Source of the DNA: an uncultured Holophagae bacterium
GTDB lineage: Bacteria; Acidobacteriota; Thermoanaerobaculia; Thermoanaerobaculales; Sulfomarinibacteraceae
Length of the DNA stretch: 64,000 nt
Direction: 5' to 3'
Assembly: GCA_963754985.1 (NCBI GenBank)
Contig: CAVWIJ010000001.1
Coordinates: forward strand, 97,035 to 161,034
Shown in pieces: positions 6,109 through 57,914 of this stretch. The stretch's first letter is position 1. Each line of letters begins with the position of its first letter. Under the pieces are notes generated by a model. The model was given only the letters and a program-made list of their open reading frames with translations. It did not search any database and was not told the origin of the DNA. The position numbers and the translations under genes were made by a program.

Positions 6109-6219
6109 TGGCACCTCCCGGTTGAGGGTTATTCCTCACTCTACTACCACCAAGGGAGAACCCGCGGTGAGGGCCCCTCGAAGTCCTGCCCGCGGGGCGA
6201 AGCGGAGCGGCAGAACCTG

Positions 6220-20353: not shown

Positions 20354-20899
20354 CTACTCGGCGGCGGGCGGAGGCACCGGCTCCGGGACCTCGTTGACGA
20401 TCGGCGGCACGGTCATGAAAAACGCGAACATCGCCTTGAGGTCCTCGACGGTGACCATTGGATAGTGCGGCATCGGGGGCAGGATGTCGCGGCCCATGCC
20501 GAGGTGCTTGCCGGTGCGCAGAGCTGCAACGAACATCTCCTCGTCCCAGGCTCCGAGACCAGTCTCCTTGTCGGAGGTCAGGTTGGCCGCGTAGCTGATG
20601 CCCCACGGCCCGGCCCACGCAGTCATGCCCCCGGTGACGGCATTCCAGGGCCCGGGCGGCAGCGCGGGCGGCGGAGGCAGCTCGACGTCACTCGGGTGCC
20701 CCGAGTACATCCGCTCCAGATCAGGCTCGGGGCCCTTGGGACCCATTCTCAGCGGCGTGTGGCAGTGGGCACACCCGACGGTCTCGACCAGGTACTTGCC
20801 ACGTTCTGCGGCCGTGAGCTCCTCGCCGGCTGCAGCGGTCATCGCTCCAGCCACCACCAGAGCGAACGCGACAAACCACGAACCAGATCCACGACTCAT
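20354..20899 (-). CDS. c-type cytochrome (single CxxCH), secreted
   Basis: Signal peptide MSRGSGSWFVAFALVVAGAMTAAAG; heme motif GCAHCHTP; a distal PPMPHYP region that may supply the Met ligand. Confidence 0.85.
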   Translation of the reverse strand: MSRGSGSWFVAFALVVAGAMTAAAGEELTAAERGKYLVETVGCAHCHTPLRMGPKGPEPDLERMYSGHPSDVELPPPPALPPGPWNAVTGGMTAWAGPWGISYAANLTSDKETGLGAWDEEMFVAALRTGKHLGMGRDILPPMPHYPMVTVEDLKAMFAFFMTVPPIVNEVPEPVPPPAAE

Positions 20900-41447: not shown

Positions 41448-42682
41448 ATGCTCCGCGCGGTGACGCTCCTCCTCTCCGACCGCTGCAACCTGCAGCTGCA
41501 GCTACTGCTACCAGAGCGGGCGAACCGGCCCGGTCCGCATGTCATGGCCAACGGCGCGGGCGGCCTCGACCTGCTCCTGGCCGGCGCGCAGACGACCGTG
41601 TGCGGTGGAGCTCAGCGGCGGGGAACCGACTCTCGAGCCGGCACTCCTGCGGAGGTGCGTCGCATACATGAAGTCGGCGGCACCGCCCGGCGTCGTAGTG
41701 GACTGCTCGCTGACCACCAACGGCACTCTCGTGGACGACGACTCTGCTCGTCCTTCCTTGTCGATCACGACGTCCGGCGATCGATCTGCAGCTTCGACGG
41801 CGTGCCCGCCGCTCAGGACCTGCGGGGCCACGAGCACGTTTCCGACGCTCGACCGGCTTCTGCAAAGGGCGCGCCGGCAGTACGCGGGGTACTTCAGTCC
41901 GCCGCGTGACCGCGCGCATGGTCGTGCAGCGGCGAACCGATGCCCCACCTCGGCGGCGTCGGTGCACCATTTCATGACGTGCGGGGTGAGCCGGATCGCG
42001 ATCGGACCGTGTCATGGCACACGGACTCCGGCTGGAAACCGAGGGACGAGGAGATCCTGCGCGGCCAGGTAGACGAAATCGTGGCGGACAGCCTGGCCCA
42101 CCTGGAGACGGCCGGGACGGTTCCGGTGGCTTTCTGACGCGGTGCCGACCGTGAGCCGCGAGCGCGAGGCAAGGGCCCGCGCTGCGCCGCCGTCTCCGGC
42201 CGCGGTGCCTGCGTGGATACGCGCAGGCGGAGTGTGGGGCTGTCCACTGTTCGCGCGATCGCTGCGACGACTGCCGCCGCTGGCGGAAGCCGCCGCCGAC
42301 CTCGTCTCTCTCGGCAGCATCCACGACCCCGCGCTGGCGGCGCGTCTCGCCGGGCTCCCAGAACGCGCGCGACACCATCCGCTGTTCTCGACGGAATCCG
42401 GCGCGCTGCGGGGCGAGACGCTGTCGCGACTGCGAGTACGCGGCCGACTGCTGGATCTGTCCGGCAGCGATCTGCGAAAGCGACCAAAGCCTTGATCCAC
42501 ACGAGGTCCCCGCGTTTCACTGCGCCTTCAGCCGCGTCACGCTGGAGGCGAGGCGACGCTTCCGCGACATGCGGGCGCAGGCCGGCGCCCGGAAATGTCC
42601 GGCCGAGCTCGCAGAGGCGCTGCGGGAGGTGGCGGCGGCCCTGCGATCGGCTGAACCCGGAGCGCCGACGCCGCGGAGCTGA
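41448..42682 (+). pseudogene. radical SAM/SPASM paralogue (module copy 2), multiply frame-disrupted
   Basis: MLRAVTLLLSDRCNL, then the CxxxCxxC motif is broken by a frame change. ELSGGEPTLEPALLRRC, SLTTNGTLV, FDGVPAAQDLRG, GVWGCPLFA and CEYAADCWICPAAIC...FHCAFSRVTLEARRRF are found in different frames. The stop is at 42680-42682. Confidence 0.75.
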
Positions 42683-42781
42683 CGGAGCGGCCGACACCAC
42701 CCGCAACTGAACGGCCTCGACCTCGTACTGTCTGGGGTGGCTGCCAACGTGGTCCATCAGAATCTCAGCTAGGGGGCGTCC

Positions 42782-44191
42782 ATGCAACGACTCGCCAGTC
42801 TCGTCCTCGGTGTGTCTCTCGCGTTCGTTCCAGTTCTCGCCGCCGCTGCCGATGAGGAGCTCCCGTTCGAGGTCCAGCGGCTGAGCGACCGGGTGCTCGT
42901 GCTCAAGGAGCTTTCGCCGTGGGAGAGCAACCACGTCGTGATCGTCAGCGCCGCCGGCCTGGTTCTGGTCGACCCCGGCCACACGGCCGTCATGGGGCGG
43001 CTGATCCGCGAGGCGGTCGGCCCGCGAGCTCGGCCGCGACCGCTTCGCCTACGTCATCGACACCCACGAGCACTGGGGCCACACCTGGGGCAACGCCGCC
43101 TTTCCGGAAGCGCTGGTGGTCGGACACGAGAACGCGCGCCGAGCGATGGACGCCGACGCTGCCAACCGCCGAGCGGCGGGCCGCGTACATGCGCGGTCAG
43201 GCCGACCTGGCGGCGGCCCGCCTCGCCGAGCTCGACCCGGCCGGCGATGAGGCCCGCGCCGCGCGCCAGGAGCGGGACCACTTCGACCGCATCGTGCGCG
43301 GGCTCGAAGAGGCCGGGTTCGCCGTGCGGACGCCAGACCTGACCTTCTCGGACCGCCTCCGCCTCGACCTCGGCGACCTCAGCCTCGAGATGTCCTATCT
43401 GGGCCGCGGTCACTCCGACTCGGACATCACGATCCTCATCCCCGAGGAGAAGGTCCTGCTGGTCGGCTGCTTCTTCGTGGAGCAGGGGCTGCTGCCCGTC
43501 TTCGGCACCCAGCCGGTGCTCGACCCGGACCGCTGGCTCGCAACCTTCGGCGCGGCTCTCGACCGCGAGCCGGCCATCGAGCACGTGATCCTCGGTCAGT
43601 ACACGGTGTGGCCGCGGGAGCGGCTCGCGGAGATGCGCGACTACATCGCCTGGCTGTGGCCGGCGGTCCAGAAGCTCGACGCCGAGGGAGTCGACCTCGA
43701 GACGGCCATGGCGCGACTGCCGCTGCTCGGACGCAGCTCGCCGGGCTTCGCCAGGCCGGGGTCAGCGACGATGAGCTCGCCCGCTTCCACCGCACCGAGG
43801 TGACGGCGCTGTGGCGGCAGGTGAAGGAGTCGGCCGCGGCCGAGGTCGGGCGCGCCGTCGACGAGGGCGGCGCCGCGGCCGGGGTCGCCCGCTACCGCGA
43901 GCTGGTCGCCGCCAACGACCCCGACCTGTTCTTCGACGAGAACGAGTTCAACCTGCTCGGCTACCGGCTGCTCGGCCAGAGCAAGGTCGACGACGCGATC
44001 GCGGTGTTCGAGCTCAACGTCGAGCGCTACCCCGACTCCTGGAACGTCTACGACAGCCTGGGCGAGGCGCACGCGACTGAAGGGAAACAGGGAGCGGGCG
44101 ATCGAGCTCTACCGGCGCTCCGCTCGAGCTCAACCCCGACAACACCAACGCGACGCAGGCCCTCGAGCGCCTGACCGCCTCGACCCTCTGA
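42782..44191 (+). pseudogene. MBL-fold hydrolase with TPR tail, paralogue of 14362..15594, multiply frame-disrupted
   Basis: Signal peptide MQRLASLVLGVSLAFVPVLAAAA. YVIDTHEHWGHTWGN (HxHxxH) sits in a second frame, LGRGHSDSDITILIPEEKVLLVGC in a third, and the TPR-like tail (NLLGYRLLGQSKVDDAIAVFELNVERYPDSWNVYDSLGEAH...ELNPDNTNATQALERL) in two more. Confidence 0.75.
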
Positions 44192-44294
44192 CCGCTCAGA
44201 CCGACCGCCGCTCGCGGAACGTGTGGCGAGCGGCCGCGTCCCGGTGGCGTGCTAGCGTGGAGCCGGGCGATCCCCTTCGCCCAGGGAGGCGAGC

Positions 44295-45087
44295 ATGCGG
44301 GTGACCATGAACGGCTACGCGCTGGCGGTGGAGGACGGCGGGCGGGGAACTCCGGTGCTGCTGCTGCACGGCTTCCCGATGTCGTCGGCGATCTTCGCGC
44401 CGATCCGCCCGTTCGTGGAGCGGTCGGGCCGCGCTGATCACCATGGACCTGCGCGGCTTCGGAGCCTCCGACGCCCCGCAGGGACTCTATGGCATGGACG
44501 AGCTCGCGGAGGACGTCGTGCGCGTGGCCGACCATCTCGGTCTCGAGCGCTTCGTGCTCGGCGGCCACTCGATGGGCGGCTACGTGGCGTTCCGGGTCGC
44601 GGCGCGCCACCGCCACCGCCTGTCCGGCCTGGTCCTCATCGACACCCGCGCCGCGGCCGACACGCCCGAGGGCGTCGAACGGCGGCGTGCGACCATCGCG
44701 ACCATCAAGGGGGGCGGGCGCAACGTCTTCCTGGACGGATTCCTGCCGTTGCTGGTAGGGCCCGTGACCAGGGACCGAAAGCCGGAGGTCATGGAGCAGC
44801 TGCGCGCGATCGCCGCCGGGATCCCGGACCACGTCCTGACCGGCTGCCTCGAAGGCATGATGACGCGTCCGGACAGCCGCGATCTGCTCGCGGGCTTGGA
44901 TCTTCCCACCCTGGTGATCGTGGGCGCTCAGGACCCGGTCACGCCGCCCGATGAGGCCCGGGCCGTCGCCCTCGCCCTGCCGCGGGGCGAGCTCATCGAG
45001 GTACCGGACGCCGGCCACACGCCGACGCTCGAGCAGCCTCGGATCGTCGGCGAGGCCATCGCACGGTTCCTGGCCGAGCAGCTCTGA
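44295..45087 (+). CDS. alpha/beta hydrolase, one apparent frame disruption near 44425
   Basis: MRVTMNGYALAVEDGGRGTPVLLLHGFPMSS, then a +1 shift to ALITMDLRGFGASD...LGGHSMGGYVAF (GxSxG)...VGAQDPVTP...DAGHTP. The gene is split in the track as 44295..44954 and 44443..45087. Confidence 0.85.
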
Positions 45088-45105
45088 ACGGCGGCTCCGC
45101 GTCCC

Positions 45106-46785
45106 TCAGACACCCGGCTGGCAGAAGCAGGAGGAGCGCAGCGTAGTGTCCGCGCCCGCCCAGGCCTCCGCGAACCGGGCCTCGAACTGCTCCGCCTCGG
45201 CGTCCTTGCCCTGCAGCCGCAGCGCCCGTCCGAGCCCGTACAGCGACCAGCCGTTGCCGGGCAACCGCGCGAGGTCCTCGCGGTAGACCGACTCCGCGTC
45301 GGCATAGCGGCGCTCCATGAGCAGGGTGGCGCCGAGGGCGTGGCGGATCGGCTGGATCCAGTCGGGCGGCTCGTCGTAGCGAAGCTCGTCCTCGCGCGCG
45401 GCCGCCTCGTACAGGGCCTCGATCCCCTCGGCCTTCTTGCCCTCTCGATAGAGGATCTCGCCCTCGACGAGCCGGTCGGCGACGTCGAGGAGGTCGTGGG
45501 CGCGGTTGTTGCCGAAGGTCGCGTCCTCGGCAACCGCGGCCCTCGCCGCGAGAAACGCCCGCTGCTCGGCGCGGGCCTCCTCGGGACGGCCGAGAGCCGC
45601 GAGCGCGACCGCGCGCGCGGCGAAGTGCAGCGACCGCGTGAGCGGGATGTAGGCGGGCGGCTCCGGCTCGTCGAGAATCTCCTGCCACCGCCCGAAGCGC
45701 ATCAGCACCTCGTACGGCATCGCGACGAAGCCGTCGGCCCAGCTCGCGTTCGCCTGCAGCCAGTCCACCGGGATGTCGGCGACCAGTTCGCGGATCGACG
45801 TCAGGGCGACCTCGCTGCGGCCGATCATCATCGCGGCGTACGCCTTCATGTGGTGGTTGTGGGACATGTAGAGGCGGTAGAAGTCCGGCGGCGCAGGCGC
45901 CACCTCGCGGTAGGCGCGATCGGCCTCGATGGCCTTGGTGTTGGCGACGATCGCCTCCTCCCAGCGGCCGCGGCGGACGTCGATATGCGACGGCATGTGG
46001 ACCATGTGGCCGAGACCAGGCATCAGGTCGCGGAGGGCGTCGGCGGCCCGGTCCGCGCGGCCCGGGTCGCTCGAGGCCTCGACGGCGTGGATGTAGAGGT
46101 GCAGGGCGAGCGGGTGCTCGGGATGGCGCCCGAGCACCTCCTCGAGAACCTGGACAACTGCCGGCGTCCACTCCTTCGGCTCGCCGGCGTGGGTCCAGAG
46201 GTCCCACGGGTGGAGGTCAAGCAGGGCCTCGGCGTAGAGGGCGCCGACATCGCCGTCGTCGGGGAAGCGCCGGTAGGCATCGGCCATCGCGTCGGCGAAG
46301 GCCTGATCGAGCGGGGCGCGATCCGCGGGCTGGGGTGACGCGTACCGCGTCGCCACGGCCTCGATCAGGGCACGGTTCGGGCCGTCGTCGAGCGGCGCCG
46401 CGAGGCGCACGGCCTCGCTCGCGGCGGCAAAGGCCGCGGCCTCCCGCTCCGGCGGCACCGCCGGGTTGTTGATGTGCGGACCGTTGGCGTACGCGATCCC
46501 CCACTGTGCCATGGCGCAGCCCGGATCGACCTCGGCGGCGCGCTGGAACGAGCGGATGGCCTCGTCGTGGTTGAAGGCGTAGAGGAACGCCAGCCCCTGA
46601 TCGAAGTACTGCTGAGCCTCGGCGGACGAGGTCTCCACGGCGCGCCGGTGCGTCCCGAGGCCGTCGAACACCGGCTCCACTGAGGTCGCGGGTCCAGTCG
46701 CGGCGCCGCCGCATGCGCCGAGGATTCCGATCACCGAAACGAGACAGCACGTCCGGCCGAGCCGCCTCATGGTCTGCGTCCTCAT
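45106..46785 (-). CDS. TPR-repeat lipoprotein
   Basis: MRTQTMRRLGRTCCLVSVIGILGACGG has a lipobox (RBS GAGGAGG). TPR-like repeats run throughout (AQQYFDQGLAFLYAFNHDEAIRSFQRAAEVDP...). Confidence 0.85.
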   Translation of the reverse strand: MRTQTMRRLGRTCCLVSVIGILGACGGAATGPATSVEPVFDGLGTHRRAVETSSAEAQQYFDQGLAFLYAFNHDEAIRSFQRAAEVDPGCAMAQWGIAYANGPHINNPAVPPEREAAAFAAASEAVRLAAPLDDGPNRALIEAVATRYASPQPADRAPLDQAFADAMADAYRRFPDDGDVGALYAEALLDLHPWDLWTHAGEPKEWTPAVVQVLEEVLGRHPEHPLALHLYIHAVEASSDPGRADRAADALRDLMPGLGHMVHMPSHIDVRRGRWEEAIVANTKAIEADRAYREVAPAPPDFYRLYMSHNHHMKAYAAMMIGRSEVALTSIRELVADIPVDWLQANASWADGFVAMPYEVLMRFGRWQEILDEPEPPAYIPLTRSLHFAARAVALAALGRPEEARAEQRAFLAARAAVAEDATFGNNRAHDLLDVADRLVEGEILYREGKKAEGIEALYEAAAREDELRYDEPPDWIQPIRHALGATLLMERRYADAESVYREDLARLPGNGWSLYGLGRALRLQGKDAEAEQFEARFAEAWAGADTTLRSSCFCQPGV

Positions 46786-46996
46786 GCGCTACCTCCTCTC
46801 GGCTGGCGACGCCACAGCTCATCGGACGGTGCACAAGATCGGCAGTGGCCGTCCGCCGTTTCACCGTCTCGGGCGCCGCACACCGGCGGTTTTCCCCATC
46901 CAAGCCGAGTGGTCAGGGCTTCTATTCCGGACAGGGGGCTCCCCCTCAAGGAGAATCCGGTGGATTCGAGGGGCGTGTCGCGACGCGCGAAGCCGG

Positions 46997-47932
46997 TCAG
47001 CTGTCGGCCGGATCCGCGACCACCATCTCAGCCGCGCCAGGCTGCATCAGGCCACCGAGCAGCGGCCCGAGCAGGCCCTGCAGCGCCTGGTCGAGCTCCG
47101 CGGCCGACTCGACCGTCGCAAGCTGGGTCAGCATGGCATCGGCCATTCCGATCACGACCATCGCCTGCGCCGACCCCTGCGCGAGCTCCTCGTCGGTGAT
47201 GGTTGCGAGCTTCTCCTTCGCCGCGGCGACCTTCACGTCCCAGTCCACGGCCATCTCGCTCGGCACCCAGCGGCCCTCGACTCGGGTCAGCTGGAGCTCC
47301 TCGGGCTCCTCGTCCGGCGCGGTCATGCGAACGGTGGCCTGATTGCCGTCGCGGGAGACGAGCTCGATCTTGGTCTGCCGGAGCTTGCCGGCAAACTCGC
47401 GGTCGAAGGCGTCATCACCGCGGGCCTTGGACACCTCGGCGGCCTGGTTCATGAGCTCGCGACCGGTCGATGAAAGGTAGCGCTCCCAGTCGATGGTCTT
47501 CAGCGTCTCGAGACGCGTCACGTCGCTCGAAAAGAAGCTATCGAGCACACTGACCACCGAGTCCCAGCCGCTCTCGATCCGCCGGCGATCGTCACCCGCC
47601 GCCTGCAGCATCGAGCTGGACAGGAAAAGCGCCTTCTTGTCGCGCAGGATCCCGACCGTCTTGCGGCCGAGGCCGAAGGCCGCGTTCCAGACCGCCGGAT
47701 CCATCCGCCCGGCGAAGGTGTGGGTCAGCTCGGTGATGTCCTTCTGGTAGGTGGGCGGCAGGGCCTGCCAGAGCACCTCGGGATGGCGGTCGGCGAGCGC
47801 CGCGCTGACCGCCCGGACGGTGCCGTCCGGTGTGTCGGGGATCTCGATCGACAGCGCCGGCGCGGCGACTGCCACAACGAGGGCAGCGAGGATGTGGCAG
47901 AGCAGATTCTTCGGATACGGAGTGTGATGCAC
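46997..47932 (-). CDS. secreted protein of unknown function
   Basis: GTG 47932 has RBS AAGGGG 6 nt upstream. VHHTPYPKNLLCHILAALVVAVAAPALS is a signal peptide. The 311-aa ORF has coding-like composition and no motif I can name. Confidence 0.65.
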   Translation of the reverse strand: MHHTPYPKNLLCHILAALVVAVAAPALSIEIPDTPDGTVRAVSAALADRHPEVLWQALPPTYQKDITELTHTFAGRMDPAVWNAAFGLGRKTVGILRDKKALFLSSSMLQAAGDDRRRIESGWDSVVSVLDSFFSSDVTRLETLKTIDWERYLSSTGRELMNQAAEVSKARGDDAFDREFAGKLRQTKIELVSRDGNQATVRMTAPDEEPEELQLTRVEGRWVPSEMAVDWDVKVAAAKEKLATITDEELAQGSAQAMVVIGMADAMLTQLATVESAAELDQALQGLLGPLLGGLMQPGAAEMVVADPADS

Positions 47933-48121
47933 GGCAACCCCTTTTGCGACGTCGTCGCGAACATTCTCGCACACGCGAGTCCGACCGCGCAAAAACCCGC
48001 GGGTACGACGCCGCGGGTGGGAAGTTCCAGGCAGGCAGGATGGAGGCAGGATGCCTACCCCACAACCCCCCGAACAAGCACGCCTCGCGGTGGGCCGGAG
48101 CAGAGTGACTCGACGGGAGGT

Positions 48122-49093
48122 TCACGGCCCGATGAGGGCCAGCAGCCCGGCCAGACCGAGGACGCCGAGCAACGCGGCGAGGACTGCGAGCACGACGCGG
48201 GCCACCGAGATCGGCGCGTCGCCGACCAGGCACGCGGCATCCTGACCGGACAGCACACACCGGTGGAGGACGCCGCGGTAGCGGTAGGCAATGACCCAGG
48301 CCGGGAAGCCGAGGCGCCGCGTGACCAGCCGCCGCGCCAGCACCGAGGTGTGGACGTTGCGGAAGCGGCGGCCGGGGATGATTCCGTCCTGCAGGCGCTT
48401 GGCCACCAATCGCTCGAGCTCGGACCGGACGTGCCGCCGCGCCGCGGCCCGCCGCAGCTCGAACTGCTCGACCACGACCTCGGGATCATCGCCTGGCTCC
48501 CGTTCGCGGGCGCTGCGGAGGTCGTAGCTCGGCAGCAGGCGGGAGGTCTCGCGAGCCGTCAGCCCACGCGACGCGGAGACCACAATGCCGTCGAGCTCGA
48601 GCTCGGTTTGGCCCGCGTGCGGAGCCCAGTCAGCGCGCGAGGCCCCGGCGTCGGAGTCGGCCGTCCAACTCACCAGGGTGTCGACGTCGAACGCCCACCC
48701 CACCCACCACAGGGCGCGCAATGACTCGAGCCGACTCGCCGATCGCAGGTCGGCCGGACGGAACCAGCCGAGGCTGCCCTGCCACTGCCGGAAGCTCTCC
48801 TCGGCGCGCGATCGATCAACGGTGAACGGCAGGACCAGTCCGGCCTGCTCCAGCGGGTCCTCGGGAAGCTCGAGGTGGACGATCGAGCCGCAGAACGCGC
48901 ACTGGGGAGCGCGCGCCGTGACGTTGTACGAGACAGCAGCGCCGCAGCCCTCGCAGCGCAGCACCTCGACCGTCGCCTCGGCTCGGTCGTCCTGGACCGT
49001 CGCCGGAGCAGCGGCGCCACAGACGGCGCAGCGCAGGTCGCCGTCCTCGAACGGGCTCGTGCAGCGCCGGCAGGAGACGGCCTCGGAGGTCAC
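48122..49093 (-). CDS. double zinc-ribbon, C-terminally membrane-anchored protein (paralogue B)
   Basis: The GTG start overlaps the upstream stop (GTGA at 49093-49090). CRRCTSPFEDGDLRCAVC and CEGCGAAVSYNVTARAPQCAFC are two CxxC...CxxC ribbons. PAWVIAYRYRGVLHRCVLSGQDA precedes the C-terminal TM helix VVLAVLAALLGVLGLAGLLALI. Confidence 0.75.
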   Translation of the reverse strand: MTSEAVSCRRCTSPFEDGDLRCAVCGAAAPATVQDDRAEATVEVLRCEGCGAAVSYNVTARAPQCAFCGSIVHLELPEDPLEQAGLVLPFTVDRSRAEESFRQWQGSLGWFRPADLRSASRLESLRALWWVGWAFDVDTLVSWTADSDAGASRADWAPHAGQTELELDGIVVSASRGLTARETSRLLPSYDLRSAREREPGDDPEVVVEQFELRRAAARRHVRSELERLVAKRLQDGIIPGRRFRNVHTSVLARRLVTRRLGFPAWVIAYRYRGVLHRCVLSGQDAACLVGDAPISVARVVLAVLAALLGVLGLAGLLALIGP

Positions 49094-49989
49094 AGCAGCC
49101 GTCCGACGAGAACGATCAGCCCGGACAGGCCGGCGATCGCGGCCGCGATCAGGGCAAGCTTGGTCCACGACAGCGGAGTCACTCCCCAGACCTTGCCGGT
49201 CTGCCCGTTGACGACGAAGCGGACCAGTGGCTTGCGCGGGTGGTAGCGCAGCGCGACGACCCACACCGGCAGCAGGATGAGGTCGGCGGACTCATGGCGC
49301 AGCGTGGTGCGGCAGGTCGTGCCGCGGTGCGTGTCACCGGGCAGGAAGCTCTCGATGATCCCGGCAGCTCGCTGCCGAACCTCCTCGCGAGCGAGCCGGA
49401 GGCAATCATCACGGGCGAGGGACGGCTCCTCCGCGATCCAGCCGGACAGCAGGGCTGGCGAGTAGCCGACCAGCGCCGCGAGGTCGAACGGCTCGATGGC
49501 CTCGAGCTCGGCGTTGGCAAGGCCGCGCGAGGCCGTCACCACGGTGTCGGTGACGTAGGACGCGTGCCGGCCCGCGAGGTCGCGGTACTCGATCTCGCGC
49601 ACCCGGCGCAACCGCTTCGAGGACAGGTCGATTTTTGTCCGCTCGTAGGCTTCACCGACCTTCGCGGAGTACTCAATGTCGACGGCAGCCGAGTAGAGAT
49701 AGGCCGGCAGGTAGATGCCCTGGACCCGCTCCGCCGCCGCCCGCCGCAGGCCCGACGGCGCCAGCCACTTGCCGCGCAGCCAGCTGCGGATCGCCGCGAT
49801 CGCCCGCCGCCGGTCGACCGAAAAACCTACCGTGAACACCGGGAGTGGCCGATCGGTTGTCGCCGGTCGATCCACCACCGACGGCGAGTCGCAGTAGGGA
49901 CAGCGCGCGGTTCGCAGCAGCGGCTCGATCAGGATGGTCGCTCCGCACGACGAGCACGCGATCTCGAGCTGCTGGCCCACTGTAGCCAC
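49090..49989 (-). CDS. zinc-ribbon, C-terminally membrane-anchored protein (paralogue A)
   Basis: CSSCGATILIEPLLRTARCPYC is the ribbon. LPVWVVALRYHPRKPLVRFVVNGQTGKVWGVTPLS precedes the C-terminal TM helix LALIAAAIAGLSGLIVLV. Confidence 0.78.
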   Translation of the reverse strand: MATVGQQLEIACSSCGATILIEPLLRTARCPYCDSPSVVDRPATTDRPLPVFTVGFSVDRRRAIAAIRSWLRGKWLAPSGLRRAAAERVQGIYLPAYLYSAAVDIEYSAKVGEAYERTKIDLSSKRLRRVREIEYRDLAGRHASYVTDTVVTASRGLANAELEAIEPFDLAALVGYSPALLSGWIAEEPSLARDDCLRLAREEVRQRAAGIIESFLPGDTHRGTTCRTTLRHESADLILLPVWVVALRYHPRKPLVRFVVNGQTGKVWGVTPLSWTKLALIAAAIAGLSGLIVLVGRLL

Positions 49990-50244
49990 GGCGATCAGTC
50001 TACCCGGAGACGAGGCCCGGGTTCGGCGACCGGAGGGAAGCCGTCTCGAAGCCGGCTCGACCGGGCGGTCGACCAGGCGCCCGGGCGATCGCGGAAAGCT
50101 GGACCCGCGCCGAGATGCCGCCCGATTCTCGGGGCAGCGGGGCAGCGATGGACGAGCACCTGGTGCATCGCTCCCGGTCAGTCACGCTCGAATTCGGGTC
50201 CGCGGCTCGGCAGTGCGCGCGGCGTATTCCCAAATTCCGAGCAG

Positions 50245-50282
50245 TTCACTAGGAATAGTTACCATCTATATGACTATAGTCA
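50245..50282 (+). promoter_or_regulatory. AT-rich island with 12-bp perfect palindrome upstream of the cytochrome pair (putative promoter/operator)
   Basis: TTCACTAGGAATAGTTACCATCTATATGACTATAGTCA is locally AT-rich in a ~70% GC context. It contains TGACTATAGTCA (50271-50282) and TATAGT/TATATG -10-like hexamers. It lies ~85 nt upstream of the cytochrome start and in the divergent intergenic region shared with 49989. Confidence 0.4.
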
Positions 50283-50365
50283 CATTCGCGACTGAAGCCG
50301 ACAGCTAGTGTCGGGAGGGGAGATCCGGATGCGCATCAGGAATCAGGTTGGGGGAGGGGTTGGTG

Positions 50366-51861
50366 ATGGCAGTGGAGTCGATGCGCCACACAGCTGCGAT
50401 GTTCCTCGGACTCGCGATCTGCGGCGCTGCCAGCCTGGAAGGCTACGAACGGTACAGCCAGAACGACGACGCCACCTGGTGCCGGGAGTGTCACGGCGAC
50501 TTCCGGGCCACGAACTATGTGTCGCTGGTTGACGGACTTCCCTGGGGCAACCTCCACAACGTGCATCGCTCGACCATGCTCGGCAGTGACTGCGAGGCCT
50601 GCCACATCGGCAGCTCGCGACTGCCGGTCTACCTCGACCAGTCGACCGGTGGCATCGGACTCGAGCCCGTATCGTGTGTCGGCTGCCATGGCGTCAACCC
50701 GTCGCCGGGCAATCCGAGCACGGGCCTGTGGGGAGCCGGCCTGCGCGCTCACCACACCAACGCCGGGGTCGGTCCCGACTCCGACGGGCTTCGCTGCCTG
50801 GACTGCCACAGCAACGATCCGCCGCCGCCGCCCGAGAACGTGCCCCCGTCATACTACTTCTCACCCGACCCGGCCCATCCGAGCAAGCCGACCAACCCCT
50901 GCAACCCGGCGCCGGGGTTCCCGGAGCACTATGCCGCGAGTGTGATCGGCCTCGATAACGACGGCGACCTGCTCTACGACGAGGTCGATCTGAGCTGTGC
51001 GGCAGTACCGACCAGCACGCCGACACCGACCTCCGTGCCTCCCCCGACGAGCACGCCCACCAGAACTCCGACGGCAACGGTAACACCCACCCCGACCGTC
51101 ACGCCGACGGCGACCCGCACCGCAACCACAACTCCGAGCGCGACCACGACCAGCACGCCGACTCGAACTCCCACGAGCACCCCAACGAGCACGGCGACGG
51201 CGACGGCGACGGCGACCCGACGCTCGACACGCCGACGCCGACACCAACCAGAACGCCAACGAGCACGTCCACGAACACCGCCACCGCAACGGCGACGCCG
51301 AGCGCGACCACGACCTCGACGCCGACCCGAACGCCAACGAACAGCGCGACCAGCACCCAGACCAGCACACCCACACCGACGCCGACGACAACCCCGACGA
51401 GCACCCCGACCGCGACGGCGCCGCCGGGCGCCACGCCGACCCATACGCCGACCAACACGCCGACCCGAACGCCAACCAACACAGCGACCGGCACCCCGAC
51501 CAGCACGCCGACTCGAACACCAACGAGCACCCCCACGAGCACCGCGACCGCGACGCCGAGCTCGACGCCGACCAGCACACCGACTCACACCCCCACTTCG
51601 ACGGCGACGAGCACACCGACGCGGACCCCGACCGCATCGGCAACCCCGAGCCCGTCGCCGACCGGCACGGCCACGCCGACACCATCCCCCACCAACACAT
51701 CGACCCCGACGACGACCCCGCCGTCGCCCACGGTCACTTCGACTCCGACCGCCACACCGACTCCTGGCCCACCGCTGATCTTCAGCGACGGCTTCGAGTC
51801 CGGGGATCTTTCGGCGTGGAGCGAGGGCCACACCCTCAGGGTTTTGAGGATCACGGGATGA
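50366..51861 (+). CDS. secreted tetraheme c-type cytochrome with ~255-aa Pro/Thr linker and conserved C-terminal tail (copy 1); one frame disruption near 51215
   Basis: Signal peptide [26 protein letters not shown]. Four CxxCH motifs (WCRECH, CEACH, CVGCH, CLDCH) and a DNDGD motif. The PT-rich linker continues in the -1 frame after (ACGGCG)4 at 51191-51214. The true end is [30 protein letters not shown], with the stop at 51859-51861. The Arg/Pro-rich tail of track ORF 50348..51778 is an out-of-frame reading. Confidence 0.85.
51005..51772 (+). repeat. Pro/Thr-codon low-complexity coding repeat (linker of cytochrome copy 1)
   Basis: A continuous run of ACN/CCN codons ([27 protein letters not shown]...), including a perfect (ACGGCG)4. 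Confidence 0.85.
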
Positions 51862-51970
51862 CCGGGATCGTCCTCGGTGCATCGCGCGCGCCGCGTCGGC
51901 CGCACGGCACGGGCGGCGAAGCGCGGTCCGCCGGTCAACCACCTCGTTTCATCGAGAAAGTGAGGCTGCC

Positions 51971-52903
51971 ATGAGAGTATTTCGTTTGAACGCCGCCGCG
52001 GCGGCGCTGCTCGCCGTTGCGATCACCGGCGTCACCACCGTGCACGGCTACGAGCGGTACAGCCAGAACGACGACGCCACCTGGTGCCGGGCGTGCCACG
52101 GCGACTTCCGGGCCGACAACTACGTGTCGCTGTCCGACGGGCAGCCGTGGGGCAACCTCCACGAGGTCCACCGATCCACGATGCTCAGCGGGGACTGCGA
52201 CGCCTGTCACATCGGGAGCTCGCGGTTGCCGGTGTACCTCGATCAGTCCACCGGCGGCGACGGGCTGGAGCCCAAGTCCTGCGTCGGCTGCCACGGCGCC
52301 AACCCTTCACCGGGCAACCCGAGCACGGGCCTGTGGGGAGCCGGGCTCAGGGCTCACCACGCCAACGCCGGGATCGCCAGCTGCGCGACCTGCCACTCCG
52401 GCGACCCGACCCCGCCGGCCGAGAACGTGCTCCCGTCGTACTACTTCTCGCCCGACCCGGCCCATCCGAGCAAGCCGACGGATCCCTGCAACCCGGCACC
52501 CGGCTTTCCGGAGCACTATGCGGCCAGCGTGATCGGCCTCGACAACGACGGCGACCTGGTCTACGACGAGGCCGACCCGAACTGCGGGGTGCCTCCCACC
52601 GCGACGCCGACGAGAACGCCGACCCGCACACCGACGCCCACTGCGACCAGGACGCCGACCGCGACGCCGACCGGCCCGCCGACCTTCACGCCGACCCCAA
52701 CACCGACGCCCACGGCAACCGGCACGCCGCCCCCACCGACCTTCACGCCGACCCGGACCGCAACCCCGACCGTGACGCCGACCCCGACCCCTGATCCGGA
52801 CCTGCTGTTCGGGGATGGCTTCGAGTCCGGCGACATCTCGGCGTGGAGTGGTGGAGTGAAGGCCGCCGCCGTGGCGGCGGCGGGGGACGCCAATCCGCTC
52901 TGA
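51971..52903 (+). CDS. secreted tetraheme c-type cytochrome with ~70-aa Pro/Thr linker and conserved C-terminal tail (copy 2)
   Basis: Signal peptide [26 protein letters not shown]. Four CxxCH motifs (WCRACH, CDACH, CVGCH, CATCH) and DNDGD. The PT linker is at 52589-52798, followed by [18 protein letters not shown]. About 80% identical to copy 1 over the heme domain, by eye. Confidence 0.9.
52589..52798 (+). repeat. Pro/Thr-codon low-complexity coding repeat (linker of cytochrome copy 2)
   Basis: [67 protein letters not shown]. Confidence 0.85.
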
Positions 52904-53114
52904 CCTCGCTCGCCGACCGCACCGTGCTTCTCGTCGTCGGTGTCGAGGCGCTGGTAGCTGGGCTTCCCTGACGGCGAGGTCATCGGCGCCTGCCGCAGTG
53001 AGCGCACAGTTGGCGTTCGCCGGGCCGGCTCCTGCCAGCCCAGTCGGTTGACATCACCAGCGAGCCTCCCTAACGTGTCCGTGGACAGTACTGAAAACGC
53101 GGTCGGAGGCCAGC

Positions 53115-56100
53115 ATGACTCGGAAGGCGCTCGGATCGGTCGGTTCGAGGCATTTTGGTGTTCTGTTCCTGCTCGCGGTCATCGCCGCCGGCGCTCTTCT
53201 GGTGACCGCCTCGGGCCGCGAGGCCGCTCCGCCGGCGGGAAACGCCGGACCCGCCGCGGCGAAGCTGCTCGTGCAAGGCTCCACGCTGTTTCTGCCCGGC
53301 GCAGCGCACGTCACAGGAGCCGCCGATACCAACTGGCGGACCGACCTCGAGGTGTACAACAACGGAGCGGTCATGGCCCAGTACGAGATCGCCCTGCTCG
53401 AGCGGGACCAGGCCAATCTCCAGCCGGCCACCGCCACCTTCAGCCTGCAGCCGGGGCGCTCGGTGCGCTACAACGACGTCCTGTGGACGGTGTTCGGGTT
53501 CAACGGATCGGCGGCGCTGCGAGTCTCGGCGCTGAGCGGCGCGGTGATGGTCTCGAGCCGCACCTACAACCAGACCGCAATCGGCACCTACGGCCAGTAC
53601 ATCGGCGGCGCGTTGGAGTCGCGGGCGATCGCGTTCGGGCAGCAGGGCCGCATCATCCAGCTCACCCACAATCAGGGCACCACCATCGGCTACCGAACCA
53701 ACGTCGGCTTCGTCAACACAACGTCGTCACCGATGGTCGTACGGGTCGACCTGTTCACGTCGGACGGCGTCCTTCTGGGGACGAGGTCGTACAACCTCGA
53801 GGCGTTCATGTTCACCCAGAAGGAGCGCATCTTCGGCTCGGTGACCCAGGGCGACGTCAGCGACGGCTACGTCGTGGTCTGGACCGAGACCCCGGGTGCC
53901 GGCTTCTTCGCGTACGCCTCAGTGGTCGACAATCGGACCGGCGATCCGATCTACATCCCGGCCTCGGTGATGGGGGGATCGACCCAGCCGACCCCAACTC
54001 CGACCCGCACCACGACCGGCACGCAGCCGTCGACGCCGACGCCGACCCGCACCCCGACGCGCACGATGACGCGCACGCCGACCAGTCACGCCGACCCAAC
54101 CCGGAGCAGGGTTCAACCTGCGCCCCTACCAGCCGTCAGGATGGGACGGCCCCGCTCGTCGCGTCCGGGCAGGCGGGGACCCACACCTCGGGCGGGCTCG
54201 TCGGCGGAAGCCCCACCTACATGGATGTCGCCTTTGCCAACGACGGTCCGGACAGCGTGTTTGTTCCCGCGAACAGCGATCTGGTCGAGATTCTGTTTGA
54301 CGGCACCTCGATCGGGTACCTTCGAAATCAGAATGCGTTCGATTTGCCGGCGGCGCCAACCTATGTCTACTGGGAGGATGTGCAGATCAACGGCGTTTCT
54401 GCTGGCCAACATACCTTCACAATGGTGGTCGATCCGCTGGACATCTTCACAGAGAGCAACGAAGGGGACAACAGCTACATCTACACCGGGACCTGGAGCG
54501 GCCTCAAGGCAGGGGGCATCGCAGTACCGAAGCCACACCTCCTGGACGGCGACCAGATGCGGTTGGCGCCGATCCCGGACCACGCGGGCGACACGCTCTG
54601 GGGCCGTCCGGTCGAGGAGTACGCGCAGAAGCGCGCCCTCGTGCCCCACGGCAGGACGGGGGTTCGCGTCGGCGGAACGAAGCTGGTCGGCGAGACGGTG
54701 TACATCGCAGCCACCGCGCACGTGGCCGGTGCTGCGGGAACGAACTGGCGGACCGATCTCGAGCTCCACAACCCGGGGTCGACCCAGGGCCAGTACCAGA
54801 TCGCGCTCCTGCGGCGCGACGAGAACAACGCGTCGCCGGCGACGGCGGTGTTCTCGGTGCCCGCCCAGCGTTGCCTCCGCCTCGCGGATGTGCTGTTCAA
54901 CGTCTTCGGGTTCACGGGAGGGGCGGCGCTGCGCGTCACGCCGCTGAGCGGCGATGTGATGGTGACCAGCCGGACCTACAACCTGACCGACCAGGGGACC
55001 TACGGCCAGTTCATCGGTGGCAAGGCCGAGTCGGAAGCGATCGATCACGGCGAGGACGGCGTCGTCATCCAGCTCTCCCAACAGCCGGGCACGGCCAGCG
55101 GCTACCGGACCAATCTCGGCTTCGTGAGCAGCGTCGGCTCCCAGATCACGGTGGCCGCCGACATCTACCGGTCCACCGGGGAGCTGCTGGGCACCCAGAG
55201 CTACACCCTGCCGCCCTATGGGTACAAGCAGGTCGATCGGATCTTCCAGTCCGTGACCCAGGGTGAGGTCGCCGACGGCTACATCGTGGTCCGGACCACC
55301 ACGCCGGGAGGTCGCTTCTTCGCGTACGCCTCGGTCGTGGACAACGCGACGGGCGACCCGATCTTCATTCCGGCGACCATGCGCGCTGGTGGCGGCCCGC
55401 CGCAGACGCCGACGCCGACGCCGACCCTCGGCCCCGCCGTGCCGCTCGACCCGCTGGTCGTCGTGCAGGAGCTGTTCGACTGGCTCGCCACCGTCGGCCA
55501 GGGCGACGTCATGAGCTTCGAGGAGGCGGCGGCGCAGATCCAGACCTATGGCCTGCAGGCGGCGCTCAATCAGGTTGCCATCGATCTGCCGGGGGTGGTC
55601 ACGGTCGGTCCGTACAGCCTGCAGTTCGACTTCCCGCCCGGCTACGTGTCACCGGACGGCTACGAGGTCAGCGGGCTGGCCGACGTCAGCTTCACGAGCG
55701 TCAACACCAACGCCCCCAACCTCTCCGCCGACTTCTCGGGCGGCCAGCAGGGCCTCCGCGTGAACGGCGGCGCCTTCATGATCGAGAACGCGAGCGGGAG
55801 CATCGACCTGGCGACCGATGCGCAGGGCCACGTGCAGGGCGCCGTGACCTTCAGCGGAACCGGCGACATCCCGTTCCTCAAGTCGGCGAGCACGATCGAC
55901 GGCGACATCCAGGTGGACACCGAGATCTGCCCGAACTACCCGATCGGCGGCCAGATCGTCCTCCAGCGCGAGGAGGGCCGGCACGAGTTCAACTTCGACG
56001 ACTGCGTGCGACGGCACCTTCGTCTACATCGGGCCGGGGCAGACCGGCGCGCTGGCGTTCCGGCTGCGCTGGCAGGGCCCGCAGGACATCGACCTCTACG

Positions 56101-56409
56101 TGCGGGAGCCCAACGGCGAGGTGATCTACTACGGCTTCCCGGTGTCGACCACGGGAGGACAGCTCGACGTCGACGCCAACGCCGGCTGCAGCGGGCCGGA
56201 CCCGGACCCGACCGAGAATGTCTTCTGGCCGGAAGGCATGGCGCCCGCTGGAACCTACCAGTTCTGGGCGGATCTGTGGTCGGACCTGCGACGGGTCGGA
56301 AACGCCGGCGGTCACGCTCTATGTGATCCGAGCCGGGGTCATCGACCGCACGATCAACACCTCGATCTCGGGCGGCCAGACCGCGACCTACGACTACCAG
56401 TACCCGTGA
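53115..56409 (+). pseudogene. ~1100-aa mosaic secreted protein (two copies of the recurrent ~220-aa domain, CARDB-like segment, YfaP/DUF2135-like C-terminal domain), at least 4 frame disruptions
   Basis: The N-terminal anchor/signal is MTRKALGSVGSRHFGVLFLLAVIAAGALLV. Domain copy 1 is at 53283-53964, followed by a PT linker. GAGFNLRPYQPSGWDGP sits in a second frame and LVASGQAGTHTSGG...NEGDNSY in a third. Domain copy 2 is at 54698-55382. The C-terminus, reconstructed across shifts near 56005 and 56290, reads CDGTFVYIGPGQTGALAFRLRWQGPQDIDLYVREPNGEVIYYGFPVSTTGGQLDVDANAGC...ENVFWPEG...TYQFWADLWSD|CDGSETPAVTLYVIRAGVIDRTINTSISGGQTATYDYQYP. The stop is at 56407-56409. Confidence 0.8.
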
Positions 56410-56422
56410 TGGCGACGTGATG

Positions 56423-56455
56423 ACGGGGACCCCGCAGCCCGAGCGCGGGGTCCCC
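56423..56455. terminator. 13-bp perfect-stem hairpin between convergent genes (putative bidirectional terminator)
   Basis: ACGGGGACCCCGC-AGCCCGA-GCGGGGTCCCCGT lies 14 nt after the stop at 56409. Only a weak T-run follows. Confidence 0.5.
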
Positions 56456-56559
56456 GTTCTGCACTCCGGTGGTGTCCGTGTTCACTCGTGACGGGAGCGT
56501 GGCAGCACTCCGGGCGGATGCGGATCACATCGCTCACGAGGTCATTCGACGCGGAGGTG

Positions 56560-57708
56560 TTACTCGGGGTGGACGCGGCGGCGGGCCGCGATCTTGAGGC
56601 TCTCCCACATCAGCCAGCCGCGCATCGCCGCACCCTTGAGCCGGCCGTGGCGGTGGTCGATGCGCGCGAGGCTCCAGTCGATCAACGTGCCTGGCGGAGT
56701 GAGCTGGTCGGTCACGGGCCGCGACACGAGCCGGATCGCATCGAAGGAGCAGGACAGCGCGCACACACCGCAGCCGATGCACCGCGTCCGGAGTCGACCA
56801 CGTAGCCGTCGTCGCCGGCGCTGATCGCCTCGACCGGGCAGCGGCCGCCGTCGCAGTCGCCGCACTCCGAGCAGAGCTCGCGGTCGATGACGGACACGTA
56901 GTTGGAGCGGGCGAGCATGTAGGGTGCGCCATGGTCGTTCACGGCGCGCAGGAAGCCGCAGCAGCAGGAGCAGCAGTTGCAGACGAAGAACGGCTCCCGC
57001 TGGACGTTATAGGTGCAGTGGACGAGGCCCTCCTCCTCGAGGCGATCGAGCAGCTCCAGGGCCTCCTGGCGGGTGATCTCGCGCCCCCACTCGGGCATGC
57101 CCTCGTAGGCGTTCGGCTCCTTCGAGAACGACATGCAGGTCTCGCTCGTGTGGCTGCAGGGTTTGCCGAGCAGGGCCTGCTCCTTGCGGCACAGGCAGTC
57201 GGCAACGCGGAACGAATTGCAGCGCCTCGAGCATCACCTTGAGGTCGTCGTAGGGCAGGACCTCGGCGCGGGCCTCGATGCGGCGGTGGACGGGGACGAC
57301 GCGGGCGAGCGCGGGCGCCACCGATCCGAGGGTGCCGAGCAGAACCGGCGCGTAGGCCTCGAAGAGCTCCGCGAGCTCGCGGTCGAGGTGGTTGAGCTGG
57401 AACTCCCAGATGCCGACGATGAACGGTGCGAGCCCGTAGTAGCGGCGGCCTCGCAGCCGGAAGCTGAAGATCTGCCCGCGCTCGGCCATGCCATCGAGGG
57501 ACTCCCGCACCTCGCCGGTGGGCCGGCGGAGCCGGCGTCCGACCATGGCCGCGGTCTCGGGCAGCGGCTTGAGCCGCAGCGCCATCGCGGCATCCTCGGG
57601 CGAGAAGATCTTGCGCAGGATGGCGAGCTCGACACCACTGTCGGTGGCCGGGAAGCCGTGAGGCAGCCCGTCGAGCACCTTCGCCAGCCTCTGGTAGACG
57701 TCGGCCAT
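56560..57708 (-). pseudogene. 4Fe-4S dicluster/Cys-rich ferredoxin-like protein with N-terminal winged-helix-like region, 2 frame disruptions
   Basis: MADVYQRLAKVLDGLPHGFPATDSGVELAILRKIF..., then a shift near 57218 to NSFRVADCLCRKEQALLGKPCSHTSETCMSFSKEP...FFVCNCCSCCCGFL...CSECGDCDGGRCPVEAI, then a shift near 56785 to CIGCGVCALSCSFDAIRL. The gene is split in the track as 57007..57723, 56712..57134 and 56560..56865. Confidence 0.75.
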
Positions 57709-57776
57709 AGTCTCTCTTCGCACGTCAGTCGACCGGCCCGGCGCGGAGGCGCGCTGCGATCAACCGCGCGACACCG

Positions 57777-57914
57777 TCACTCCTCTGGCTCGCTGGGCCC
57801 GGCATCGCCCTCCTTCTTTTCGATCCGGCGCGCGCGCTTGTCGGCCTTCTTCTGCTGCTTCTCGACCTCTCGCCGCCGCTTCTCGAACTTGTAGGATCCG
57901 GTCTTGCGTGGCAC
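57777..57914 (-). CDS. possible 45-aa highly basic small protein
   Basis: Below the track size cut-off. GTG 57914 is preceded by GGAGGGAG. The protein is MPRKTGSYKFEKRRREVEKQQKKADKRARRIEKKEGDAGPSEPEE. No family recognised. Confidence 0.35.
   Translation of the reverse strand: MPRKTGSYKFEKRRREVEKQQKKADKRARRIEKKEGDAGPSEPEE

Follow-up and report, generated by a model that had tools for sequence, protein, structure and literature searches.

We analyzed a stretch of 64,000 nucleotides from an uncultured Holophagae bacterium (GenBank assembly GCA_963754985.1, contig CAVWIJ010000001.1, positions 97,035 to 161,034 of the forward strand), hereafter the window, with a G+C content of about 70%. It carries two adjoining cytochrome genes on the + strand, at 50366-51861 (gene 1) and 51971-52903 (gene 2) as called. 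The two products share one layout: a signal-peptide-like N terminus, a tetraheme head of about 185 residues, a DNDGD motif with a Cys after it, a linker rich in Pro and Thr, and a tail with the consensus L(I/L)F(S/G)DGFESGD(L/I)SAWS. A preliminary description of the window, made from its letters, had placed at 50366-52903 two adjacent genes on one strand, each with a signal peptide, a heme domain with four CxxCH motifs, a DNDGD motif, a Pro/Thr linker, and the tail, and we saw every one of these elements again. On balance, we favor the reading of the pair as surface-displayed or extracellular electron-transfer cytochromes with a lineage-specific sorting tag, the frameshifts in the two genes being assembly errors. 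The tail is the more interesting half of the finding. More tentatively, it could define an undescribed C-terminal sorting or attachment system devoid of a transmembrane segment and for the most part restricted to Thermoanaerobaculia-type Acidobacteriota, whose cargo includes Pro/Thr-stalked cytochromes for extracellular electron transfer; we hold this wider proposal to be possible rather than probable.

A C-terminal tail on many unrelated proteins of one lineage

One genome per species, for 185,579 species, was scanned with a degenerate DNA pattern encoding F-x-D-[GD]-F-E-x-G-[DN]-x3-W-x4-P and then TRR. The tail and its stop were found in at least 117 genome stretches, with 130 matches among those listed, and the counts given in this paragraph concern these listed loci and matches. 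Each of the 130 matches closes with TGA, TAG, or TAA and none with TGG, even though the pattern allowed it; they terminate open reading frames (ORFs) of 70 to 1366 aa. Acidobacteriota-type labels are carried by 98 of the 117 loci: Thermoanaerobaculia and its orders, “Holophagae”-labeled MFD metagenome-assembled genomes (MAGs), Candidatus Multivoradales (put in Thermoanaerobaculia by a taxonomy look-up), and Sulfomarinibacteraceae, a family that we take to belong to Acidobacteriota. Eleven loci are unclassified and eight have other labels, four of these eight coming from one MAG. Some MAGs have several loci, as seen in MFD00032.bin.2.196 (the genome of contig L001, see below), OFTM27, and P_S1_bin.14. 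Positions left free in the pattern are nevertheless conserved, with L, I, or V at position -19 (93%), S at -5 (83%), A at -7 (63%), T at -9 (62%), and V at -2 (55%). The resulting consensus, [LIV]FxDGFESGDTSAWSxxVP-COOH, has about 20 residues.

A looser form of the motif occurs 158 times in the loci that we fetched, and in 154 of these cases a stop is no more than 6 residues away. The preliminary description had pointed out that the tail might simply be the start of a known domain, truncated in the window. Given its position next to the stop, we rejected this possibility for the genomes. In two metagenomic fragments (P0138 and P0154), the motif IFADGFESGD.S.W opens a larger, beta-rich-looking domain without a Pfam match, and in two other metagenomic fragments (P0135 and P0136) the motif stands twice in tandem at the C terminus. 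Perhaps the tail originates from the first strand of the larger domain seen in P0138 and P0154, or mimics it.

The proteins ending in this tail are diverse. They include, by Pfam, FG-GAP, Peptidase_S8, BNR, PA, beta-helix, LPMO_10, M14, GSDH, GH114, and trypsin-like families and, by NCBIfam, choice-of-anchor B, O, and Q domains, rhombotarget A, and M36 peptidases, whose relatives depend on myxosortase, the type IX secretion system (T9SS), or rhombosortase. About 74% of the complete cargo ORFs have a signal-peptide-like N terminus according to a crude hydrophobicity score. Three heme proteins unrelated to the tetraheme head (loci L009, L066, and L044, with 5, 9, and 2 CxxCH motifs, respectively) bear the same tail; their hosts are Thermoanaerobaculia-type MAGs. 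A search of a set of 5.8 billion proteins with a profile of the tail returned short fragments only (130 aa or less), and those ending in the tail come from FG-GAP, subtilase-like, SdrD-B, UnbV/ASPIC, and Calx-beta proteins. This distribution makes the tail a tag found across the lineage, borne by many types of cargo and not specific to these cytochromes, and it looks like an undescribed sorting or anchoring tag. The idea that it could be an anchoring or sorting signal, already put forward in the preliminary description, now has strong comparative backing: the same tail is found on more than 100 unrelated proteins with predicted signal peptides, nearly all of them from Thermoanaerobaculia-type Acidobacteriota, and its position is taken by recognized sorting or anchoring modules in homologs from other lineages.

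No Pfam or NCBIfam model for the tail emerged when isolated tails and 66 full-length proteins bearing it were scanned, and its match to the first 30 positions of NTTRR-F1 was not significant (E of about 0.2). The AlphaFold2 (AF2) model of a linker-less homolog shows the tail as disordered (predicted local distance difference test, pLDDT, below 50) and not packed on the head. Literature searches for “GFESGD” gave unrelated papers only, and those combining Thermoanaerobaculia with multiheme proteins, combining multiheme proteins with PEP-CTERM, or concerning choice-of-anchor domains found nothing alike described.

A large family of tetraheme heads with interchangeable C termini

The window proteins have weak Pfam matches to Cytochrom_c3_2, Cytochrome_C7, and MtrC-MtrF domains II/IV. 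Only for PF14537 (Cytochrom_c3_2; gathering score 25) is a threshold narrowly passed, by gene 2 with 27.4 bits but not by gene 1 with 23.2, over a match of only about 50 residues; the matches to c7 and to MtrC domains II/IV are all below threshold, with 19.8 and 10.9 bits for PF22113 (pentaheme domains II/IV; threshold of 30 bits). NCBIfam provided no family for the window proteins beyond a weak match of the acidic disulfide repeat NF033662 at DNDGD (17-19 bits versus a cut-off of 41), where the DNDG core is invariant and the flanking Cys residues are conserved. A Cys-bracketed acidic loop of the DxDxDG type, as in thrombospondin type 3-like Ca-binding repeats, is a candidate reading of this motif. 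The head of gene 2 is modeled by AF2 with a pLDDT of about 90, and no relative of the head was found by Foldseek against the PDB or by a sequence-profile search of the PDB. This agrees with the preliminary description, in which the architecture was not recognized as a named family.

Relatives of the head are numerous. A word-indexed search found 285, all unnamed or “hypothetical,” in MAGs of Acidobacteriota, Myxococcota, and Phycisphaerae and in metagenomes. A HMMER profile searched against 1.84 billion representatives gave 1009 clusters at E<=1e-3, of which 359 also pass E<=1e-30 (the count of about 1,000 refers to clusters at 50% identity). These homologs range in length from 200 to 1300 aa, and in all of them the head stands at the N terminus. 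We scored its conservation on an alignment of 102 sequences. The four CxxCH motifs are invariant. Of the four extra His residues that are conserved (H64, H67, H130, and H165 in gene 2), H67 and H130 are invariant and H64 and H165 are present in 90% or more of the sequences. The DNDG core and C173 are invariant as well, and the next D and the second Cys of the pair, C205, reach 90% or more. Both window copies retain every one of these conserved features. Four extra His for four hemes suggest bis-His coordination. Several CxxCH motifs, invariant across the 102 homologs, together with an exported-type N terminus mark the window proteins as putative multiheme c-type cytochromes, with about 47 aa per heme. 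An anchoring as lipoproteins was considered and rejected, since conservation does not extend to the Cys of the signal peptide. From these searches, the head is a large, uncharacterized, and structurally unsolved family.

We cataloged the C termini of the 120 closest homologs, from the conserved Cys closing the head onward. The short tail, hFxDGFESGDTSxWSxxVP-COOH, is found in 24 of them, some of which lack the linker. A long tail, in 28 of the 120, consists of the motif, a spacer of about 20 residues, a hydrophobic segment of about 17 residues (GTVFLMVxxGAxLAGLPGIR), and an Arg cluster. A strict DNA pattern for this long tail retrieved from metagenomes only 7 chance matches, the pattern being overly strict. 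Other homologs end in T9SS C-terminal domains (PF18962/PF13860, e.g., P0056, P0067, and P0087), in dockerin-like repeats, in a PEP-CTERM (TIGR02595, 16.7 bits versus a cut-off of 16), or in a MYXO-CTERM (26.4 bits versus a cut-off of 20). Still others have a different short tail, ..PVE..(T/S)WGxIKxL(F/Y) (P0066, P0069, P0071, P0085, P0101, and P0115), or a domain of about 120 aa that contains Cys and closes with ..QDLxxRCD (P0062, P0091, P0093, P0094, and P0096); where tested, NCBIfam models matched neither of these two. More distant members carry Ig-like arrays (ASH/HYDIN, Big_5), DUF4215 repeats, cohesin, or MopE-type repeats, and it is behind the N-terminal head that Ig-like arrays or Pro/Thr linkers stand in the family. 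Such partners are typical of surface and extracellular proteins, and by its associations the head is an extracytoplasmic module carried on stalks and anchors. This interchangeability of stalks and anchors argues against an ordinary soluble periplasmic cytochrome.

The two genes and their reading frames

At the protein level, the mature heads of gene 1 and gene 2 share 86% identity, where about 80% had been estimated by eye for the heme domains. The identity of the coding DNA is 79%. The ratio of nonsynonymous to synonymous divergence (dN/dS) is 0.20, with a dS of 0.59. These values indicate paralogs under purifying selection and not a resemblance by chance, and on this evidence the two genes are old, diverged tandem paralogs of a Thermoanaerobaculia-type Acidobacteriota genome. 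Their CxxCH motifs start at residues 39, 76, 104, and 144 in gene 1 and at residues 39, 76, 104, and 138 in gene 2 (Table 1). The mature protein of gene 1 probably begins at YERYSQ, and its tail has no transmembrane segment.

Table 1. Features of the two cytochrome genes, in positions of the window
Feature	Position	Strand	Remarks
Gene 1, tetraheme cytochrome paralog	50366..51861	+	498 aa once one base is restored near 51217
Gene 1, signal-peptide-like N terminus	50366..50440	+	Family consensus A-x-A/Y..YS.N.DAT.C
Gene 1, tetraheme head	50441..50998	+	CxxCH starts at nt 50480, 50591, 50675, 50795
Gene 1, DNDGD	50954-50968	+	Acidic motif between the conserved Cys pair
Gene 1, Pro/Thr linker	50999..51774	+	259 aa, P+T 68%, imperfect tandem repeats; holds the 1-nt frameshift
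Gene 1, tail	51775..51861	+	16-residue motif, 12 more residues, stop at 51859-51861
Gene 2, tetraheme cytochrome paralog	51971..52971	+	310 aa as called (end 52903); 333 aa corrected
Gene 2, tetraheme head	52046..52585	+	CxxCH starts at nt 52085, 52196, 52280, 52382
Gene 2, DNDGD	52541-52555	+	Within the head
Gene 2, Pro/Thr linker	52586..52801	+	72 aa, P+T 75%
Gene 2, tail motif	52802..52852	+	17 residues
Gene 2, hidden C-terminal extension	52871..52971	+	Frame restored by 1 nt; Gly-rich spacer, hydrophobic TVLLVVGVEALVAGLP, TGA

The reading frame of gene 1 is interrupted. Near 51217, the ORF as called (50348-51778) departs from the Pro/Thr frame into an Arg-rich off-frame sequence, and it is the +2 frame that continues the Pro/Thr repeats through the tail to the stop. 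Restoring a single C (CCC to CCCC) gives a read-through to the 498-aa product. The preliminary description had taken gene 1 as continuous, crossing this break silently. It had also made both proteins end in the tail, which probably does not hold for gene 2, where an indel hides a hydrophobic extension. Relative to contig L125, which is 90.6% identical and encodes the closest relative (P0001), the window lacks one G after 52870. Once the frame is corrected, gene 2 has the length of P0001 (333 aa) and stops at 52969-52971, which reveals a hydrophobic extension of about 30 residues masked by the 1-nt gap. Hence, the GFESGD motif is probably not the true C terminus of gene 2. In both the corrected gene 2 (52969-53000) and L125 (about 1473-1510), a TGA at the same place comes directly after ..GLP/..SLP, and an Arg-rich stretch (RRGHRR in gene 2, RGTRPRQR in L125) lies downstream without a change of frame. 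A nonsense change common to gene 2 and L125 appears to have cut off the basic cluster that a long-type tail would have.

The window is syntenic with L001 (CAVQXZ010000001.1), a 1.57-Mb MAG contig of isolate MFD00032.bin.2.196, at a DNA identity of 81-89%, and the L001 cytochrome cluster includes a protein labeled Thermoanaerobaculales. Genes that are intact in L001 are in pieces in the window: five frame changes break a 1096-aa protein into six collinear pieces, and a metallo-beta-lactamase is in five pieces and an alpha/beta hydrolase in two. Between breaks, the identity to the L001 orthologs is 76-98%, mostly 83-97%. The region 41900-57800 is rich in such single-base splits (e.g., 42782-44185, 44295-45084, 53115-56406, and 56712-57723). 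This pattern is typical of unpolished long-read assembly, and ORF-based readings of the window need frame correction. Since the neighboring genes are split in the same way relative to intact orthologs, the indels in both cytochrome genes are likely to be sequencing or assembly errors. Programmed frameshifting in gene 1 was rejected because indels occur across the window. At the corresponding locus, L001 has one cytochrome only, followed by a PMT_2-like gene in two pieces. Two short-read contigs, L123 and L125, break off 143 and 99 nt past the cytochrome stop, respectively; these breaks fit a repeat at this place and are therefore no evidence against a tandem pair.

Genomic context

Among the neighbors of the cytochromes in the window are an M14 peptidase, oxidoreductases, a member of the OmpA family, a DEAD-box helicase, and several proteins that no Pfam model matches. 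A conserved operon partner was looked for and rejected, as the contexts of P0003, P0036, and P0010 have in common only the synteny of close relatives. Downstream of gene 2, 53115-56406 (+) is the ortholog of the 1096-aa protein of L001, a secreted protein with no Pfam or NCBIfam match. It has two copies of a domain of about 240 aa (TNWRTDLE.. YRTN(V/L)GF.. FFAYASVVDN.TGDP) and a Pro/Thr linker of its own, and the M14 carboxypeptidase at 3001-6114 (-) carries, toward its C terminus, a related domain with 29% identity to this one. Divergent from the cytochromes lies a paralogous pair without a Pfam match, 48122-49264 (-) and 49090-49989 (-), with zinc-ribbon-like Cys-pair motifs at the N terminus and a hydrophobic segment at the C terminus; this pair is kept beside the cytochrome in L001, L123, and L125 and is not found in the distant contexts. 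The PMT_2-like gene of L001 (10978-12532), of the protein O-mannosyltransferase/ArnT type, has no counterpart in the window; the corresponding interval there is occupied by the second cytochrome. This neighbor in L001 hints at O-glycosylation of the Pro/Thr linkers. The window also encodes a small monoheme cytochrome c (Pfam Cytochrom_C) at 20357-20899 (-), which is unrelated to the tetraheme pair.

A possible mechanism and its alternatives

In the mechanism that we propose, the proteins would be exported by the Sec pathway thanks to their N-terminal signal peptide and would receive four hemes in the periplasm at the four CxxCH motifs, the four conserved His serving as sixth ligands. The conservation of these residues suggests a low-spin bis-His electron-transfer module. 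The tail, [LIV]FxDGFESGDTSAWS, would then act as a lineage-specific sorting or anchoring tag delivering the protein to the outer membrane or farther out, to the cell surface or the extracellular matrix, as comparative genomics suggests, and in some family members, probably including gene 2, it would be followed by a hydrophobic anchor segment. By analogy with known systems, the Pro/Thr linker would be an extended tether, possibly glycosylated or mineral-binding, that lets the head reach donors or acceptors tens of nanometers away from the anchor, i.e., that allows extracellular electron transfer. At an estimated 0.3 nm per residue, linkers of 72-259 aa could reach about 20-80 nm when fully extended. 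A head projecting some distance from the cell surface, as suggested in the preliminary description, is plausible.

Several observations weigh against this mechanism. No porin-cytochrome, cytochrome maturation (Ccm), or secretion genes are among the genes of the window, and the absence of a porin-cytochrome partner there had already been noticed in the preliminary description; porin and periplasmic decaheme genes are missing from the window and from three other contexts alike. Conserved neighbors of the cytochrome are absent in three more distant contexts. The clustering of 916 ORFs from the 117 tail loci listed gave no candidate sorting enzyme or transporter, and the families near these loci are generic only (Ser/Thr kinases, histidine kinases, ABC ATPases, and sulfatases). 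As the head has no structural relative, the arrangement of the heme core and the redox role are read from motifs only. The short tail, including that of gene 1, has neither the transmembrane segment nor the basic cluster of tripartite sorting signals. Finally, a C-terminal hydrophobic anchor with Arg residues fits a tether to the inner membrane equally well.

This last point leads to the main rival reading, a periplasmic cytochrome tethered to the inner membrane, in which the hydrophobic segment is a permanent anchor rather than a sorting signal that is cleaved, and the Pro/Thr linker would let the head shuttle electrons between inner- and outer-membrane components. The 28 homologs with a long tail would, by the positive-inside rule, fit a type I inner-membrane anchor, corrected gene 2 terminates in a homologous hydrophobic segment, and its 72-aa linker, when extended, would approximate the width of the periplasm. 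This explanation is conceivable for gene 2, but overall we find it unlikely, given that gene 1 and the 24 short-tailed homologs lack any hydrophobic segment, that the stop in gene 2 and L125 comes ahead of the Arg cluster, and that the linker of gene 1 exceeds by far what the periplasm requires. Moreover, the T9SS, dockerin-like, PEP-CTERM, and MYXO-CTERM variants point beyond the periplasm, and known tripartite sorting signals resemble such anchors yet are processed. The tail could instead be a small structural or adhesive module, e.g., what was once the first strand of a jelly-roll domain and now forms a free beta-strand or hairpin, that binds a partner protein, an exopolysaccharide, or a mineral, with export past the periplasm, if any, taking another route. 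The lack of a transmembrane segment and of a basic cluster in the short tail would agree with such a module, as would the nonsignificant match to NTTRR-F1 and the fragments in which the motif opens a larger domain or stands in tandem. We consider this quite unlikely, in view of the fixed spacing to the stop (within 6 residues in 154 of 158 cases), the conserved terminal Pro, and a cargo set and swapping with recognized sorting signals that are the behavior of a sorting tag. The two ideas are compatible, since one tag can be recognized by a sorting system and also attach.

It may also be asked whether the architecture has a current function at all, as each gene is frameshifted in the assembly and L001 has a single cytochrome at the locus. 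The genes could be decaying pseudogenes, or the tandem pair an artifact of assembly. We regard this as very improbable. Housekeeping-type neighbors are frameshifted to the same extent and the segments in between are 83-97% identical to intact orthologs, the dN/dS of 0.20 between the heads comes with the retention of all invariant residues, and the two copies differ by 21% in DNA and so are no collapsed or expanded identical repeat. The ends of contigs L123 and L125, which fit a repeat, do not speak against the tandem pair either.

If the tail is a sorting tag, as we favor, it may have consequences beyond this locus. To our knowledge, diderm bacteria have C-terminal sorting tags of two kinds: tripartite ones, which include a transmembrane segment, and folded domains, such as those of T9SS. 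A tag of about 20 residues that lacks a transmembrane segment and that a genome may carry dozens of times, on secreted enzymes, adhesins, and cytochromes, points to an uncharacterized route of envelope sorting or attachment. The lineage that bears it is a widespread and almost uncultured class, for which the tail could provide a simple sequence handle to list the surface and secreted proteome from metagenomes. The abundance of the head module on stalk and anchor proteins and its Pro/Thr tether recall PgcA of Geobacter, and a tetraheme head on a tether suggests a testable mechanism of extracellular electron transfer in Acidobacteriota. Reduction of Fe(III) and Mn(IV) has been reported for the one cultured representative of Thermoanaerobaculia known to us.

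Comparison with known systems

The nearest functional analog is PgcA of Geobacter sulfurreducens, described as “hemes on a string,” in which Pro/Thr repeats join heme domains, bind Fe(III) oxides, and add reach and flexibility (PMC10570954, PMC5732950). As predicted for the window proteins, it is a secreted c-type cytochrome with heme modules on long unstructured Pro/Thr stretches. The differences are substantial. PgcA has three monoheme domains and two Pro/Thr stretches, whereas each window protein has one tetraheme head, one stretch of 72-259 aa, and a C-terminal tag, so that its tether links the head to the tail and not heme domains to each other. Furthermore, PgcA is a lipoprotein that is processed at the N terminus and then released. 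No sequence similarity between the two was seen, with no search aimed at it, and we take PgcA for an analog rather than a relative, the resemblance being functional only. Several CxxCH heme-attachment motifs, with His predicted as sixth ligands, are a likeness to the outer-surface cytochromes MtrC/OmcA and to the small triheme or tetraheme cytochromes c3/c7. However, the window proteins depart from c3 in heme spacing and in how the extra His are ordered, and they lack the conserved lipobox, the decaheme layout, and the MtrAB-type partner genes of the MtrC/OmcA class.

We know of no cognate sortase-like enzyme for the tail. In other respects, it resembles the tripartite C-terminal sorting signals LPXTG, PEP-CTERM, MYXO-CTERM, and GlyGly-CTERM, and it can be compared with them by the criteria of Haft (bioRxiv 10.1101/2023.06.07.544157). 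It has a C-terminal location, multiplicity, a signature motif, diverse cargo, and cargo with predicted signal peptides. Its signature, F-x-D-G-F-E-S-G-D-x3-W, has more than three invariant residues, as in tripartite signals. Like them, it is restricted to a lineage, and it swaps with PEP-CTERM and MYXO-CTERM on the same cargo domain. The short tail differs in ending 5 residues past the invariant Trp. The long tail does have a hydrophobic segment and an Arg cluster, but its spacer of about 20 residues after the motif is unlike tripartite signals, and corrected gene 2 has the hydrophobic segment with a stop ahead of the Arg cluster.

The C-terminal domains of T9SS (Por_Secre_tail, PF18962/TIGR04183) offer another parallel, as they too are tags without a transmembrane segment found on many secreted proteins of one lineage. 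However, they are folded beta-sandwiches of 70-100 residues, whereas the tail has about 20 residues, is predicted to be disordered, and shows no sequence similarity to them; neither window protein matches Por_Secre_tail (PF18962/TIGR04183). Closer in logic are the “choice-of-anchor” domains of NCBIfam. Although the tetraheme head is not among the named families of this kind, it resembles them as a conserved extracytoplasmic module with lineage-dependent C-terminal anchors, and bona fide choice-of-anchor B, O, and Q proteins bear the GFESGD tail in Thermoanaerobaculia-type genomes.

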